DNA of 64,000 nt from Escherichia coli (GTDB taxonomy: Bacteria > Pseudomonadota > Gammaproteobacteria > Enterobacterales > Enterobacteriaceae), in NCBI RefSeq assembly GCF_003790525.1, contig NZ_CP033635.1; one strand, 5' to 3'. Below the pieces are notes generated by a model. That model was given only the letters and a program-made list of their open reading frames with translations, had not been told where the DNA came from and did not search any database. Position 1 is the first letter of the stretch; each line of letters begins with the position of its first letter. The translations under genes and the position numbers were made by a program. Below, piece by piece: positions 3,430 through 43,861 of the stretch.

Positions 3430-4005
3430 ATGACGCAACAAATCACCCTCATTAAAGACAAAATTCTCTCCGATAACTATTTCACCCTGCACAACATTAC
3501 TTACGATCTCACGCGCAAAGATGGCGAAGTTATCCGTCATAAACGTGAAGTTTACGATCGCGGTAATGGTGCGACGATCCTCCTGTACAACGCGAAGAAA
3601 AAGACCGTGGTTCTGATTCGTCAGTTCCGTGTCGCTACCTGGGTTAATGGCAATGAAAGCGGGCAGCTGATTGAAACCTGCGCCGGGCTGCTGGATAACG
3701 ACGAACCGGAAGTGTGCATTCGCAAAGAAGCAATTGAAGAGACGGGCTATGAAGTGGGCGAAGTGCGCAAATTATTTGAACTGTATATGTCGCCTGGCGG
3801 TGTGACTGAGCTAATCCACTTTTTTATCGCCGAATACAGTGACAGCCAGCGCGCTAACGCCGGTGGTGGTGTCGAAGATGAAGATATTGAAGTGCTTGAG
3901 CTGCCGTTCAGCCAGGCGCTGGAGATGATTAAAACCGGCGAGATACGTGACGGTAAGACGGTGTTATTGCTTAACTATTTGCAAACGTCACATTTAATGG
4001 ACTGA
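3430..4005 (+). CDS. nudK: GDP-mannose pyrophosphatase (Nudix hydrolase)
   Basis: ORF-track entry trimmed to ATG 3430 ([11 protein letters not shown]) preceded by GGAG; Nudix-type sequence. Confidence 0.88.
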
Positions 4006-4130: not shown

Positions 4131-5174
4131 ATGCGCTATCGCATTTTCCTTCTCTTTTTTTTCGCTTTGTTGCCGACGTCTTTGGTGTGGGCGGCACCAG
4201 CGCAACGGGCGTTTTCCGACTGGCAGGTCACCTGTAATAACCAAAACTTCTGCGTGGCGCGTAATACGGGCGATCATAACGGACTGGTGATGACCCTGAG
4301 CCGCAGCGCCGGGGCGCATACCGATGCCGTTTTACGTATTGAGCGCGGCGGGTTGAAGTCGCCGGATGCGTCTGAAGGGGAGATAGCGCCACGGCTGCTG
4401 TTAGATGGTGAGCCGTTGGCGTTAAGTGGTGACAAGTGGCGGATTTCACCATGGTTACTAGTAACCGATGATACGGCAACCATCACCGCGTTTTTGCAGC
4501 TGATTCAGGAAGGGAAGGCAATCACCTTACGCGATGGCAATCAGACCATTTCTCTGAATGGCTTAAAAGCGGCGTTGTTGTTTATTGATGCTCAGCAAAA
4601 GCGCGTTGGCAGTGAAACCGCGTGGATAAAGAAAGGGGACGAACCGCCGCTCAGCGTACCGCCCGCGCCTGCGCTGAAAGAGGTCGCGGTGGTTAACCCA
4701 ACGCCGACGCCACTCTCACTCGAAGAACGCAACGATTTGCTGGATTATGGAAACTGGCGGATGAATGGTCTGCGCTGCTCGCTTGATCCGTTACGTCGTG
4801 AGGTGAATGTCACTGCGCTGACCGATGATAAAGCACTGATGATGATTAGCTGTGAGGCAGGGGCCTATAACACCATTGATTTGGCATGGATTGTGTCGCG
4901 TAAAAAGCCGCTAGCCTCGCGCCCGGTTCGGTTGCGTTTGCCGTTCAACAACGGTCAGGAGACGAATGAACTGGAACTGATGAACGCAACATTTGATGAG
5001 AAATCGCGTGAACTGGTGACCTTAGCGAAAGGGCGCGGATTAAGCGATTGTGGCATTCAGGCGCGCTGGCGCTTTGACGGTCAGCGTTTTCGCCTGGTGC
5101 GTTACGCCGCAGAACCCACCTGCGATAACTGGCATGGGCCAGACGCCTGGCCCACGTTGTGGATCACCCGTTAA
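4131..5174 (+). CDS. ypfG: Secreted protein of unknown function (DUF1176-like)
   Basis: 347-aa ORF with N-terminal signal peptide (MRYRIFLLFFFALLPTSLVWA). Confidence 0.85.
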   Translation: MRYRIFLLFFFALLPTSLVWAAPAQRAFSDWQVTCNNQNFCVARNTGDHNGLVMTLSRSAGAHTDAVLRIERGGLKSPDASEGEIAPRLLLDGEPLALSGDKWRISPWLLVTDDTATITAFLQLIQEGKAITLRDGNQTISLNGLKAALLFIDAQQKRVGSETAWIKKGDEPPLSVPPAPALKEVAVVNPTPTPLSLEERNDLLDYGNWRMNGLRCSLDPLRREVNVTALTDDKALMMISCEAGAYNTIDLAWIVSRKKPLASRPVRLRLPFNNGQETNELELMNATFDEKSRELVTLAKGRGLSDCGIQARWRFDGQRFRLVRYAAEPTCDNWHGPDAWPTLWITR

Positions 5175-5213
5175 ACAAAATCCCAGATGCGCCCCTAAAA
5201 AGCGCACAGACTG

Positions 5214-5268
5214 TCTCCTCGCCCCTCTGGGGAGAGGGTTAGGGTTAGGGGAACATACAGCATCCGGC
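5214..5268. repeat. GC-rich intergenic repeat (boxC-like), copy 1
   Basis: Sequence cctcgcccctctggggagagggttagggttaggggaaca is near-identical to 18608-18650; sits between convergent ypfG and tktB. Confidence 0.5.
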
Positions 5269-5276
5269 GATCACCA

Positions 5277-7280
5277 TCAGGCACCTTTCACTCCCAGCAC
5301 CTTATGCGCTTTTGCCACAATATTCTCGGCGGTAAAGCCAAAGAACGGGAACAGCTTATCCGCCGGAGCAGATTCCCCGTAACCCGTCATCCCGACAATT
5401 GCCCCTTTCAGACCAACATACTTGTACCAGTAATCGGCGATGCCTGCTTCCACCGCTACGCGAGCCGCAACGTTAGAAGGCAACACCGACTCCCGATATT
5501 CCTCATCCTGGGCGTCGAAAATATCGGTCGAGGGCAGGGAAACTACGCGTACATTGCGACCTTCTCCCGCTAATTTCTCTGCCGCTTGCAGGGTGATTTC
5601 CATCTCTGAACCGGTGGCAATCAAAATAATATCTGGCTTACCGCCGCTGTCTTTCAACACATAACCACCACGAGCAATCTCTTTAACCTGATCCGGCGTA
5701 CGTTCCACCTGGGCCAGATTCTGCCTGGAGAGGATCAGTGCCGTCGGTCCGTTGTGGCGCTCAACCGCCAGCTTCCAGCCCACCGCTGCTTCCACCTGAT
5801 CGCACGGTCGCCAGGTGCTGAAATTTGGCGTTAAGCGCAGACTGGCCAGTTGCTCAACAGCCTGGTGCGTAGGACCATCTTCGCCCAGGCCAATTGAGTC
5901 GTGGGTATAAACCATAATCTGCCGCGCTTTCATCAGTGCCGCCATCCGCGCGGCGTTACGGGCGTATTCAACAAACATCAGGAACGTCGCGGTATACGGC
6001 ACAAAGCCGCCGTGGTGCGCAATGCCGTTGGCGATAGCGGTCATGCCAAATTCACGCACCCCGTAGTGAATGTAGTTGCCCGCCGGATCTTCCTTCAGCG
6101 AAACAGAACCTTTCCAGATGGTCAGGTTGCTGGGAGCCAGATCCGCCGAACCGCCGAGCAGCTCCGGTAGCATAGGCCCGTAAGCGTTAAGCGTATTTTG
6201 CGAAGCCTTACGGGTAGCGATTTTCGCCGGATTCGCCTGCAACTCATTGATATATTTCTGAGTCGTTTTCTCCCAGTCCTTCGGTAAACCACCGCTCATC
6301 CGACGGGTAAACTCTTCTGCCAGTTGCGGATGAGCCTTTTTATAGGCGGCAAACTTCTCATTCCAGCTCTGCTGCGCTTTTTCGCCTTTTTCGCGGGCAT
6401 CCCAGGCGTGATAAATCTCTTTAGGGATCTCAAATGGCGGATGGTGCCAGCCCAGTTTTTGCCGTGCCAGCGCCACTTCTTCTTCCCCCAGTGGTGCGCC
6501 GTGCGCCTCTTCCTTACCTGCTTTATTCGGCGAACCAAAGCCAATCACCGTACGGCAGATAATCAGCGACGGCTTATCTTTCACGCTTTGCGCTTCAAGG
6601 ATCGCTTCCTTCACCGCCTGCGGATCGTGGCCGTCGATCTCGTGGATCACATGCCAGTGATAGGCTTCAAAACGTTTTGCTGTATCGTCGGTAAACCAGC
6701 CTTCGGTTTCACCGTCGATGGAAATACCGTTGTGATCGTAAAAACCAATCAGCTTGCCCAGTCCCAGCGTGCCCGCCAGCGAACAGACTTCGTGGGAAAT
6801 ACCTTCCATCAGGCAGCCGTCGCCCATAAACACATAGGTGAAGTGATCGACAATTTCATGATCTGGCTGGTTAAACTGCGCCGCCAGCGTACGCTCTGCT
6901 ATCGCCAGCCCGACGGCGTTCGCCAAACCTTGTCCAAGTGGACCGGTGGTGGTTTCAACACCAGGCGTATAGCCGATTTCCGGGTGACCAGGGGTTTTCG
7001 AATGCAACTGACGAAAGTTCTTCAGTTCTTCCAGCGGCAGGTCGTAACCGGTCAGATGCAGCAAACTGTAGAGCAGCATCGACGCGTGACCGTTGGAAAG
7101 AATAAAGCGGTCGCGATCATACCAGGTTGGGTCGGTAGGATTATGTTTAAGAAAATCGTTCCACAGCACTTCGGCAATATCAGCCATGCCCATCGGCGCG
7201 CCGGGATGACCAGAATTGGCTTTTTGTACCGCATCCATACTGAGTGCGCGAATCGCATTGGCAAGGTCTTTTCGGGACAT
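5277..7280 (-). CDS. tktB: Transketolase 2
   Basis: ORF trimmed to ATG at 7278-7280 ([27 protein letters not shown]); immediately downstream of talA. Confidence 0.92.
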
Positions 7281-7299
7281 ATAACACTCCGTGGCTGGT

Positions 7300-8250
7300 T
7301 TATAGTTTGGCGGCAAGAAGATCTTCCAGTTTGCGTTGATCAACGGCGAACAGACGAATGCCTTCAGACAGTTTTTCTACCGCCATCGCATCCTGATTGT
7401 GCTCCCAACGGAACTCCGCTTCGCTCATGGGAGCTGGGCGTGGGAACGTCTGAGAAGGTGGGATTAATTTACGTACCACTGGCGAAACTTTTTCCTGCAG
7501 CTCCTTTAGCAAATTCGGTGCGATAGTCAGTCGATCGCAGCCGGTTAAGGCGAGGATTTGTTCGGTGCGACGGAAACTCGCGCCCATCACAATGGTTTCA
7601 TAGTGGTGTTGCTTATAGTAGTCGTAGATATTGCGTACTGATTTAACGCCTGGATCTTCTTCCACCACATACGGGTCCATCGGCTTGCGTGCCTGATACC
7701 AGTCATAAATACGCCCGACAAACGGCGAAATCAGAAATACGCCTGCTTCTGCACAGGCCCGCGCCTGTGCAAAAGAAAACAGCAGCGTCAGGTTGCAGTT
7801 AATACCTTCTTTTTCCAGCTCTTCTGCCGCGCGAATTCCTTCCCAGGTTGAAGCCAGCTTGATCAAAATGCGTGATTTCTCAACGCCTTGTTGCTGATAC
7901 AAGTCCACCAGATGGCGGGCCTTTTCAATACTCTTTTCTTTATCAAAAGAGAGGCGTGCATCAACTTCTGTTGACACGCGACCGGGTACGATTTTGAGAA
8001 TTTCAGCACCGAAATTGACCGCCAGTTTGTCACACGCTGCGACCACCTGTTGTTCCTGGGTTTTGCCATTTTTTTTACCCCAGGCGATAGCATCGTCTAT
8101 TAAATGCTCATATTGTGATAATCCGGCAGCCTTGAGTAACAGCGAAGGATTGGTGGTGGCATCCTGGGGATGATAATGGCGAATGGACTCAATATCGCCG
8201 CTGTCTGCCACGACAGTGGTGAACTGTTTGATGCCGTCTAACTCGTTCAT
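7300..8250 (-). CDS. talA: Transaldolase A
   Basis: 316-aa ORF; transaldolase sequence; forms talA-tktB pair. Confidence 0.92.
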
Positions 8251-38944: not shown

Positions 38945-40031
38945 GATTGCCAATATTAAGAAGTCTTTTGGTCGCACCCAGGTGCTGAACGATATCTCAC
39001 TGGATATTCCTTCTGGTCAGATGGTCGCGTTGCTGGGGCCGTCCGGTTCCGGGAAAACCACGCTGCTGCGGATTATCGCCGGGCTGGAGCATCAAACCAG
39101 CGGGCATATTCGCTTCCACGGCACCGACGTTAGCCGCCTGCATGCGCGCGACCGTAAAGTCGGTTTCGTGTTCCAGCATTACGCGTTGTTCCGCCATATG
39201 ACGGTATTCGACAATATCGCTTTTGGCCTGACGGTGCTACCGCGTCGCGAGCGCCCGAATGCGGCGGCGATCAAAGCGAAAGTGACAAAATTGCTGGAGA
39301 TGGTGCAGCTTGCCCATCTGGCAGACCGCTATCCTGCGCAGCTTTCCGGCGGCCAGAAACAGCGTGTGGCGCTGGCGCGCGCGCTGGCTGTAGAACCGCA
39401 AATTCTGCTGCTTGATGAACCGTTTGGCGCGCTGGATGCGCAGGTGCGTAAAGAGTTGCGTCGCTGGCTGCGTCAGTTACATGAAGAGCTGAAATTCACC
39501 AGCGTGTTTGTGACCCATGACCAGGAAGAAGCGACCGAAGTAGCCGATCGTGTAGTGGTGATGAGCCAGGGCAATATCGAGCAGGCTGATGCACCGGACC
39601 AGGTCTGGCGCGAACCAGCGACCCGTTTTGTACTCGAATTTATGGGCGAAGTTAACCGCCTGCAGGGAACCATTCGCGGCGGGCAGTTCCATGTTGGCGC
39701 ACATCGCTGGCCGCTGGGCTATACACCTGCGTATCAGGGGCCAGTGGATCTCTTCCTGCGTCCGTGGGAAGTGGATATCAGCCGCCGTACCAGCCTCGAT
39801 TCGCCGCTGCCGGTACAGGTACTGGAAGCCAGCCCGAAAGGCCACTACACCCAATTAGTCGTGCAGCCGCTGGGGTGGTACAACGAAGCGCTGACGGTCG
39901 TGATGCACGGCGACGACGCCCCGCAACGTGGCGAGCGTTTATTCGTTGGTCTGCAACATGCGCGGCTGTATAACGGCGACGAGCGTATTGAAACCCGCGA
40001 TGAGGAACTTGCTCTCGCACAAAGCGCCTGA
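38934..40031 (+). CDS. cysA: Sulfate/thiosulfate ABC transporter ATPase
   Basis: 365-aa ORF with Walker [10 protein letters not shown] and ABC signature [14 protein letters not shown]. Confidence 0.92.
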
Positions 40032-40052
40032 TAGGTTGAGTGAATGTTAAAC

Positions 40053-40085
40053 GCCCGGAGGCGCTTCCCGCGATCCGGGCTTTTT
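40053..40085 (+). terminator. Putative terminator/attenuator after cysA
   Basis: Stem gcccgga / tccgggc followed by tttt. Confidence 0.4.
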
Positions 40086-40104
40086 AATGGCAAGGTTTGT
40101 AACC

Positions 40105-40140
40105 TGTAGGTCTGATAAGACGCGCAAGCGTCGCATCAGG
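40105..40140. repeat. REP (repetitive extragenic palindromic) element
   Basis: gtaggtctgataagacgcgcaagcgtcgcatcaggc matches the REP pattern (gataag...cgcatc...ggc). Confidence 0.6.
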
Positions 40141-40164
40141 CAACACCACGTATGGACAGAGATC

Positions 40165-41076
40165 GTGAGTACATTAGAACAAACAATTGGCAATACGCCT
40201 CTGGTGAAGTTGCAGCGAATGGGGCCGAATAACGGCAGTGAAGTCTGGTTGAAACTGGAAGGCAATAACCCGGCAGGTTCGGTAAAAGATCGTGCGGCAC
40301 TTTCGATGATCGTCGAGGCGGAAAAGCGCGGCGAGATTAAACCGGGTGATGTGTTGATCGAAGCCACCAGTGGTAACACCGGCATTGCGCTGGCAATGAT
40401 TGCCGCGCTTAAAGGCTATCGCATGAAATTGCTGATGCCCGACAACATGAGCCAGGAACGCCGTGCGGCAATGCGTGCCTACGGTGCGGAACTGATTCTG
40501 GTCACCAAAGAGCAGGGCATGGAAGGTGCGCGCGATCTGGCGCTGGAGATGGCCAATCGTGGTGAAGGAAAGCTGCTCGATCAGTTCAATAATCCTGATA
40601 ATCCCTTCGCCCATTACACCACCACCGGGCCGGAAATCTGGCAGCAGACTGGCGGGCGCATTACCCATTTTGTCTCCAGCATGGGAACAACCGGCACTAT
40701 CACCGGCGTTTCACGCTTTATGCGCGAACAATCCAAACCGGTGACCATTGTTGGCCTGCAGCCGGAAGAAGGCAGCAGTATTCCGGGCATTCGCCGCTGG
40801 CCTGCGGAATATCTGCCGGGGATTTTCAACGCTTCGCTGGTGGATGAGGTGCTGGATATTCATCAGCGCGATGCGGAAAACACCATGCGCGAACTGGCAG
40901 TGCGGGAAGGAATATTCTGTGGCGTCAGCTCCGGCGGCGCGGTTGCCGGAGCACTGCGGGTGGCAAAAGCTAACCCCGGCGCGGTGGTTGTGGCGATCAT
41001 CTGCGATCGCGGCGATCGTTACCTTTCTACCGGGGTGTTTGGGGAAGAGCATTTTAGCCAGGGGGCGGGGATTTAA
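40165..41076 (+). CDS. cysM: Cysteine synthase B (O-acetylserine sulfhydrylase B)
   Basis: ORF trimmed to GTG 40165 (STLEQTIGNTPLVKLQRMGP); PLP-enzyme sequence. Confidence 0.88.
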   Translation: MSTLEQTIGNTPLVKLQRMGPNNGSEVWLKLEGNNPAGSVKDRAALSMIVEAEKRGEIKPGDVLIEATSGNTGIALAMIAALKGYRMKLLMPDNMSQERRAAMRAYGAELILVTKEQGMEGARDLALEMANRGEGKLLDQFNNPDNPFAHYTTTGPEIWQQTGGRITHFVSSMGTTGTITGVSRFMREQSKPVTIVGLQPEEGSSIPGIRRWPAEYLPGIFNASLVDEVLDIHQRDAENTMRELAVREGIFCGVSSGGAVAGALRVAKANPGAVVVAIICDRGDRYLSTGVFGEEHFSQGAGI

Positions 41077-41078
41077 GA

Positions 41079-41538
<460 letters not shown>

Positions 41539-41551
41539 GAGAAAAAATTAA

Positions 41552-42403
41552 ATGAGTAGTTTGTTGTTGTTTAACGATAAGAGCAGGGCACTGCAGGCGG
41601 ATATCGTTGCCGTGCAGTCGCAGGTAGTGTACGGCAGCGTAGGCAACAGCATTGCGGTGCCTGCTATCAAACAGAACGGCCTGAATGTCTTTGCCGTGCC
41701 GACGGTATTGCTGAGCAATACGCCGCATTATGACACTTTCTACGGTGGTGCGATTCCGGATGAATGGTTTAGCGGTTATTTGCGTGCGCTTCAGGAGCGT
41801 GATGCGCTGCGCCAACTTCGTGCTGTAACCACGGGCTATATGGGAACGGCATCGCAAATCAAAATCCTTGCCGAGTGGCTGACTGCGCTACGCAAAGACC
41901 ATTCTGACTTATTGATTATGGTCGATCCGGTGATCGGCGATATTGATAGCGGAATTTATGTCAAACCTGACCTTCCCGAAGCGTATCGACAATATTTACT
42001 GCCGCTGGCGCAGGGAATTACCCCCAATATCTTTGAGCTGGAAATCCTGACCGGTAAAAATTGCCGCGATCTCGACAGTGCCATTGCTGCCGCAAAAAGT
42101 CTGCTTTCAGACACATTAAAATGGGTGGTGATTACCAGCGCCTCCGGTAATGAAGAAAATCAGGAGATGCAGGTGGTGGTGGTCAGTGCCGACAGCGTGA
42201 ATGTCATTTCCCATTCACGGGTTAAAACTGACCTGAAAGGGACTGGCGACCTGTTTTGTGCTCAGCTTATCAGTGGTTTGCTGAAAGGGGAGGCGTTAAC
42301 CGATGCGGTGCACCGCGCGGGGTTGCGCGTACTGGAAGTGATGCGCTATACCCAGCAGCATGAGAGCGATGAATTGATTTTGCCGCCGCTGGCGGAAGCA
42401 TAA
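41552..42403 (+). CDS. pdxK: Pyridoxal/pyridoxine/pyridoxamine kinase
   Basis: 283-aa ORF, ribokinase-like PdxK sequence. Confidence 0.9.
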
Positions 42404-42411
42404 AAAAATGG

Positions 42412-42423
42412 CGCCGATGGGCG
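42412..42423. repeat. IS4 target-site duplication, left copy (cgccgatgggcg)
   Basis: Identical 12-mer directly flanks the other IS4 end at 43850-43861. Confidence 0.85.
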
Positions 42424-43849
42424 TAATGCCAGTCAGTTAAGCAACTGACTGGCTCTTTTTCGGGGCTGTGGGGTATTTCCAGGGCCTCTCCTTTACCACT
42501 CTCGGGAAGGCCCTTTCCCTTCTTGTCGGTAATTTCACAAGTTGTCCCATACTTGCAAGATCGCGCATCAGCTCCGGTATACGTCCCGGTGAAGCGCCCT
42601 GCAATGTCATCAGCATTCTCATCACCATTCCACATGATTCTGAGAAACTCAGTTGATTCGGCCAGTAACCTTTCAGATGTTCCGCCATTTTAATCATCTG
42701 ATATCTCACCAGATTATAAGCCAGTAAGACACCCCACAGCTCTTGCTCCACAAGCTCCGGTTTTTTACTTCTCAGCGTCAGCCTGCTCAGTTGCATCGTC
42801 TGTTTTATCTCCCTGTATCCCAGTTCGATTTCCCAGCGATGACTGTACAGATCCGCCATTTCTCCTCCGGGGAAGCGCATGGCGTCCGTCATCGACGTCA
42901 GCAGATGGCAGACTTTTCCTTTGCGCGTCACGGTCAGCAGGCGGGCTGTCACTTCATTTCCCAGTCCCGGCCACTTTTTTCGTGCCTGCGGGCTGGTTTT
43001 CAGCTTCACCAGATGATCGCCTTTACCCAGTTTTCTGATCTCTTCATATTGCGCTCCCTTTCTGAGAGGTATCATCCAGTGGCGGTGTTCTCCCGCCAGG
43101 CTCCAGGCATTTAACAGTCCCAGTGAGTAATAACCTTTATCCATTAACGTCAGAGTGTTATCGCCGGTTTGTTCTATAAGTTGCTCAGCAAGCTCATTTT
43201 CGCTGTTCTTCATCGTGCCGAAGGCTGCAGCCGTCAGCAGATGGCTGGTCAGTTCCATCTGGCAGACCATTTTGACCTGCGGGTAGAGCGCCGGGTTCCC
43301 GGCATGTGTCTGGCGGGGGAAGGCTGCATCGTTCTCTGGTGTATCCGGTGTGCGCCAGAACACACCATCGATGGCCAGCAGGGTCAGGCCGCACCAGTGC
43401 GGATGCGGCGTGGCGTTATGCCAGAGCTGCGCTGTTTTCGTGAACACGCGGCGGACAGCCTCACTTCCCAGGCGCTGGCGGGCCTGAATAACGGCACTGG
43501 GGGCAACGAAGGGGCGATTGCCCGGCAGCATGATGTCCAGGCGATTCACAATCTGGTGAAGAGGTTCTTTACGCTCAAGCGCCATGCCAACAATACACCA
43601 GACCATCATTTCGAGGGGAAGACGGCGCTTGCGTAGCGTTACAGTACCTGATTCGGCAAGGCAACGAGAGATGAGTTCGGGGTCGAGGTAATCCCCCAGA
43701 GAAGTCAGTGGGTTACGCAGAGAATCGTAACGGGATACCAGATCAAGAGCCTGTCCAATGTGCATAAAAAAATCCGGAAACAAGTGAGCGTTTCCGGATT
43801 CTTACACAGCCACTGGATCGGTCAACTGATCCTTAACTGATCGGCATTA
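42424..43849 (-). mobile_element. Insertion sequence IS4 (1426 bp), intact
   Basis: Terminal 18-bp inverted repeats taatgccagtcagttaag / cttaactgatcggcatta (16 of 18 match), single transposase ORF, 12-bp direct repeats. Confidence 0.92.
42437..43765 (-). CDS. insG: IS4 transposase (DDE family)
   Basis: 442-aa ORF from ATG 43763-43765 ([16 protein letters not shown]) inside the IS4 inverted repeats. Confidence 0.9.
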
Positions 43850-43861
43850 CGCCGATGGGCG
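43850..43861. repeat. IS4 target-site duplication, right copy (cgccgatgggcg)
   Basis: Identical to 42412-42423. Confidence 0.85.

Follow-up and report, generated by a model that had tools for sequence, protein, structure and literature searches.

The closest described locus is that of Escherichia coli K-12, where cysM, yfeS, yfeK and pdxK (b2421–b2418) follow one another. According to the MG1655 annotation, cysM is separated by a 188-bp spacer from yfeS (735 bp, 244 aa, annotated as 'WGR domain-containing protein'), which is followed after 32 bp by yfeK (124 aa). In K-12, yfeK and yfeS are reported to form one operon under a sigma-E promoter, and deletion of yfeS to make the strain sensitive to boric acid (PMC11502571). 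Both genes were also grouped with the sigma-E regulon in another study, in which over-expression of yfeS was without effect (PMC2685091). Besides, the K-12 segment that carries yfeS is comparable with the 'genomic islets' found between convergent genes. It resembles them in its low GC content, single cargo gene, 8-bp direct repeats and patchy distribution, but differs in having no mobility gene, terminal inverted repeats or tRNA, and in that the occupied site, reduced to one repeat, does not exactly give the empty one.

We analyzed a stretch of 64,000 nucleotides of E. coli DNA (hereafter, the window) that contains the corresponding locus. The flanking genes, their order and orientation, and the sigma-E-like region upstream of yfeK match those of K-12, whereas the BIME and yfeS segment of about 960 bp is missing and the flanks are only about 95% identical to K-12. 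With a probability of about 85%, we conclude that the window carries the ancestral, yfeS-free allele, and that the K-12-type allele is an old foreign insertion that has since been shuffled by homologous recombination.

The cysM/yfeK junction in the window

An earlier note on this DNA had placed the stop codons of cysM and yfeK 2 bp apart, which the sequence, the open reading frames and the RefSeq annotation of E. coli SMS-3-5 all confirm. Read from the window, positions 41070–41081 are gatTAAgaTTA. The two genes are convergent and directly adjacent, with pdxK next after yfeK, and the features of the region are the following:

40165–41076, + strand: cysM (cysteine synthase B), 303 aa, stop TAA at 41074–41076; from the RefSeq annotation of the identical record and the ORF
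41077–41078: spacer GA between the convergent stops, 2 bp; from the K-12 alignment and the junction panel
41079–41447, − strand: yfeK, 122 aa, tail ...KTVPAQ-stop; stop at 41079–41081 (TTA on the + strand, TAA on the − strand)
41081–41114: inverted repeat ATTGCGCAGGC ... GUCUGCGCAAU, 11-pair stem and 12-nt loop, in the last yfeK codons and just after the cysM stop
41481–41508, − strand: GAAACTT-N16-TCAAA upstream of yfeK, sigma-E-promoter-like, read from the sequence
41552–42403, + strand: pdxK, flanking yfeK on its other side; order as in K-12

A 1-kb query across the junction found E. coli SMS-3-5 (NC_010498.1) to be 100% identical to the window, and the RefSeq annotation of this record agrees in the gene ends and has the order cysW-cysA-cysM / yfeK / pdxK / IS4 / crr. 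The earlier note had also stated that in K-12 a yfeS gene of 244 aa lies between yfeK and the convergent cysM, while allowing that K-12 might have the same immediate yfeK/cysM junction. The gene order given there is right, by the MG1655 annotation and by the alignment, in which K-12 has yfeS in between. The pairwise alignment contains a single clean gap of 959 bp in the window relative to K-12. The 2-bp spacer is the empty site, at which K-12-type strains have the BIME and yfeS segment of about 960 bp.

Regarding expression, the motif upstream of yfeK resembles the sigma-E promoter that has been assigned to yfeK(-yfeS) in K-12. The consensus scan of 40700–41700 gave no terminators or promoters, and the Rfam scan of 40000–42500 gave nothing at the junction. 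The yfeK codons for IAQ and PAQ make up the hairpin at 41081–41114, which is disrupted in the K-12 allele. Judging from its sequence, it may provide a 3′ end for one or both of the convergent transcripts; the folds of the junction on both strands were not significant against shuffled sequences (z = −1.4 and −1.05).

Two other elements lie nearby. The cysA-cysM spacer contains a REP-type palindromic element at 40100–40145, with a sub-threshold Rfam match to naRNA4 (REP-derived) at 40110–40142 on the − strand (32 bits against a gathering score of 59.5). Between pdxK and crr, the window has a complete IS4 of 1426 bp (42424–43849) that is absent from K-12, with its transposase ORF at 42437–43783 on the − strand. 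A 12-bp target duplication, CGCCGATGGGCG, borders the element at 42412–42423 and 43850–43861. The insertion is inside a GC-rich hairpin (AAAAAAATGGCGCC GATG GGCGCCATTTTT), which in K-12 is found between the convergent genes pdxK and crr.

The yfeS segment and its frequency in E. coli

The K-12 segment consists of a REP/BIME element and yfeS, the latter with its own Shine-Dalgarno sequence. Its GC content is lower than that of its neighbors, with 0.39 in yfeS as compared with 0.57 in cysM and 0.52 in pdxK. The earlier note had proposed looking for direct repeats at the junction, and the segment indeed has an exact 8-bp repeat, GGATTAAT, at either end. One copy comes directly after the cysM stop and the other overlaps the yfeK stop, 952 bp apart (3476–3483 and 4428–4435 of locus L001), as expected of an IS-type insertion. 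The repeat is present at both segment ends in the four yfeS-positive alleles examined (K-12, BL21, STN0717-11 and a Pseudocitrobacter MAG). YfeK ends in ...KTVPAEGN-stop (124 aa) in yfeS-positive strains and in ...KTVPAQ-stop (122 aa) in the window.

The K-12 segment lacks terminal inverted repeats as well as any mobility gene or transposase, yfeS being its sole ORF, and neither in K-12 nor in the window do the annotation and ORFs place an integrase gene, a tRNA or an att site at the border. Nor is the full-length segment repeated within genomes, since 1381 genomes account for the 1382 records that have it, essentially a single copy each. On plasmids and phages we found no intact close copy of yfeS, and the phage matches were weak, partial ones from Listeria. 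A YfeS-like stretch at 70% identity lies on the 50-kb E. coli plasmid NZ_CP098226.1 (L033 5001–5702). It does not form one intact ORF, carries no annotation in PLSDB and may represent a pseudogene or a copy ridden with sequencing errors.

At the protein level, YfeS has a WGR domain (PF05406) at residues 9–71 (E = 6.1e-18, 65 bits against a cut-off of 22). The AlphaFold (AF2) model has a pLDDT of 95.7 and matches PDB structures only in this domain (the WGR of PARP2 and 2ra8 from B. fragilis), so that the fold search of the model against the PDB gave no solved relative of the C-terminal helical domain. YfeK belongs to DUF5329 (PF17263, E = 1.8e-31) and to NCBIfam PRK10318 (PRK10318.1-3, 279 bits against a cut-off of 171), and its N-terminus is signal-peptide-like. 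Neither YfeS nor YfeK matched a PADLOC model.

The segment (spacer and yfeS) was found at a query coverage of at least 80% in 1381 of 5426 complete E. coli genomes, about 25%, the genomes below this coverage matching only its REP part, a genome-wide repeat. This supports the suggestion of the earlier note that presence and absence vary between strains. Conversely, about three quarters of the 5426 genomes have the yfeS-free junction, which is therefore the majority allele. The junction query was held in one place in 5371 complete E. coli genomes, 11 out of 40 records evenly sampled from its matches contained yfeS, and a few dozen genomes have extra IS1 or IS150 insertions at the locus. Three yfeS-free RefSeq genomes, Nissle 1917, O157:H7 and O111:H8, have the gene order of the window and the 2-bp gap between cysM and yfeK, with only point differences in the flanks (96–98% identity over 1 kb). 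Over the 50 bp that span the yfeS-free junction, SMS-3-5, Nissle, O111:H8 and strain 98192 do not differ at all; O157:H7 and AREA_499 have single-base variants of it, the change in O157:H7 lying in the cysM anchor. Hence, strain-to-strain variation at cysM/yfeK is ordinary and already visible in RefSeq annotation. The absence of yfeS described in the earlier note holds for the window as such, but not in the sense of a loss, the yfeS-free state being the majority and most likely the ancestral allele.

Ancestral state of the junction

The polarity rests on parsimony over a small outgroup sample, comprising 22 loci from a YfeK scan with one genome per species, in which E. fergusonii, E. marmotae and Salmonella were not recovered. 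Within this sample, Escherichia sp. E1V33, a divergent 'E. coli' genome and the Enterobacteriaceae MAG UBA5654 have no yfeS, and their cysM and yfeK abut or overlap. Pseudocitrobacter faecalis, also without yfeS, has the same 2-bp junction with one base changed over 50 bp, while Citrobacter amalonaticus and Superficieibacter 1612_C1 are yfeS-free with about 30 bp between cysM and yfeK.

The relatives of YfeS were searched among 5.8 billion proteins. Identities were about 90–98% in the E. coli cluster and dropped without intermediates to 65% and then to 55–58% for proteins of Paenibacillus, Dysgonomonas, Lysinibacillus and Clostridium, so that the closest relatives beyond the enterobacteria are at 55–65%. 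The relative at 58% has an unrelated gene context, and one at 89% is at the same ptsI-crr-pdxK-yfeK site; among enterobacterial contigs, yfeS was found only at the cysM/yfeK site. Taken together, the junctions, the outgroups, the low GC content and the distant relatives lead us to consider absence as ancestral and yfeS as horizontally acquired. Most likely, then, SMS-3-5 and the window keep the ancestral yfeS-free allele, and K-12-type strains are the ones with the insertion.

One could argue that yfeS was instead lost by deletion in SMS-3-5 and the other yfeS-free lineages, for example between the 8-bp GGATTAAT repeats, since the segment is flanked by direct repeats able to mediate such an event. 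The yfeS alleles within E. coli differ by 2–5%, so the gene is no recent arrival but old in the species, and an ancient loss that then spread is possible; IS insertions and truncated copies also show that the locus decays in some strains. However, deletion between the repeats would leave one GGATTAAT and a PAEGN-stop tail, whereas the window has GATTATTG and PAQ-stop. Removing the segment and one repeat copy from K-12 gives TTTAAGGATTAATTTCCTTCCGCAGG, and the window has TTTAAGATTATTGCGCAGG, 7 bp shorter, and is therefore not a simple product of repeat-mediated deletion. Among 15 taxa, we found no yfeS-free genome with the PAEGN-stop tail, that is, a 'clean' empty site. Loss is also hard to reconcile with a yfeS-free junction that four unrelated E. 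coli backgrounds share without any change and P. faecalis almost so, with the lack of yfeS in most outgroups, and with the foreign character of the gene, given its low GC content and its distant relatives in Firmicutes and Bacteroidota. We consequently regard deletion as unlikely. Even smaller, to the point of being negligible, is the probability that the tight junction is an artefact of assembly or annotation, with the segment collapsed or missing: thousands of E. coli genomes that were finished independently have the same contiguous junction in one aligned piece, which refutes this reading, and the junction is contiguous in other genera too.

Probable recombination and other insertions at cysM/yfeK

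The presence of yfeS does not track the genealogies of the flanks, as judged by pairwise flank identities. STN0717-11 (yfeS-positive) and 98192 (yfeS-negative) have cysM 3′ ends that are 100% identical and yfeK genes that are 97.4% identical. The yfeK of K-12, with yfeS, is 98.5% identical to that of O111, without it, and the cysM of BL21 (yfeS-positive) is 98.9% identical to that of O157 (yfeS-negative). Pseudocitrobacter shows the same presence/absence polymorphism with the same junctions (4168–5300 of the MAG locus L014 against the P. faecalis locus L013). The backbone of L014 is 89–93% identical to that of L013, and the 5′ half of its yfeK is only 59–77% identical to E. coli, whereas identity to E. 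coli yfeS-positive alleles is 94–98% in the cassette and in about 200 bp at the 3′ end of yfeK. From this pattern of flank and cassette identities, it follows that the alleles have been exchanged by homologous recombination in the flanks, both within E. coli and across genera, with a Pseudocitrobacter as one recipient.

The region from 40600 to 41600 of the window is also variable: E. coli lineages share only 92–97% identity in pairwise comparison, and just 26 genomes reach at least 99% identity to the window across this 1 kb. Such diversity at the cysM 3′ end and in yfeK seems unusual within E. coli. The low identity around the junction is consistent with repeated recombinational imports.

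Three other taxa have different DNA at the junction:

E. albertii (L018), 4330–6150: about 1.8 kb with two orphan AT-rich ORFs (280 and 175 aa), co-oriented with cysM
C. sedlakii (L019), 4363–8186: about 3.8 kb with two ORFs (628 and 654 aa), co-oriented with yfeK
Superficieibacter electus (L021), 4375–4895: insert of about 0.5 kb

The YfeK tail after ...TDKT differs in all three, and the cargo ORFs of E. albertii and C. sedlakii gave no NCBIfam match. It is worth asking whether cysM/yfeK is a recurrent insertion hotspot of Enterobacteriaceae that receives unrelated cargo within a few bases, including yfeS in E. coli and Pseudocitrobacter, and has the dispensable YfeK tail rewritten each time, in its strong version through specific targeting, perhaps of the hairpin; we consider this improbable. 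We judge it very unlikely that the junction is a specifically targeted integration site, of a recombinase or a hairpin-targeting system, rather than a permissive gap. Such targeting would fit the different cargo at exactly this junction in different taxa, the replacement of the YfeK tail after ...TDKT in each taxon with a readable right boundary or a checked tail, and the inverted repeat at the site. Nevertheless, no integrase, transposase, terminal inverted repeats or tRNA are found there, the insert boundaries vary between taxa and the hairpin is not significant against shuffles. Moreover, insertions generally do least harm at convergent 3′ ends, so that survivorship explains the pattern. 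The loci compared across taxa gave no sign of a targeted insertion mechanism, and cysM/yfeK looks like a permissive convergent 3′-3′ gap that tolerates insertions.

Returning to the reading that we prefer, an old foreign insertion into a yfeS-free locus, a low-GC segment of about 0.95 kb would have entered once, just after the coding core of yfeK. The route would have been an illegitimate insertion of the microhomology or target-duplication type in some enterobacterial background, which would have placed yfeS downstream of yfeK and replaced the last yfeK codons. Because of the 7-bp difference in length, this insertion was either not a clean one-step event into the present E. coli empty allele or took place in another background. 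Homologous recombination, acting in the flanks, which are conserved, would then have exchanged both alleles among lineages and genera. Where yfeS is lacking, yfeK would be monocistronic, and the cysM and yfeK transcripts would have to end inside each other's coding region, perhaps with the aid of the hairpin at 41081–41114.

According to these results, the K-12 gene order is not the species default at cysM/yfeK, and yfeS belongs to the accessory genes, about a quarter of complete E. coli genomes having it. Therefore, phenotypes attributed to yfeS in K-12, such as the sensitivity to boric acid, cannot apply to most E. coli strains. If the junction were a hotspot, cargo co-oriented with yfeK, as yfeS is, would be readable from the sigma-E promoter. 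Of little consequence overall, the locus is a small example of a foreign gene captured between convergent genes, and it also exemplifies an insertion allele moved among lineages and genera through flanking homology.
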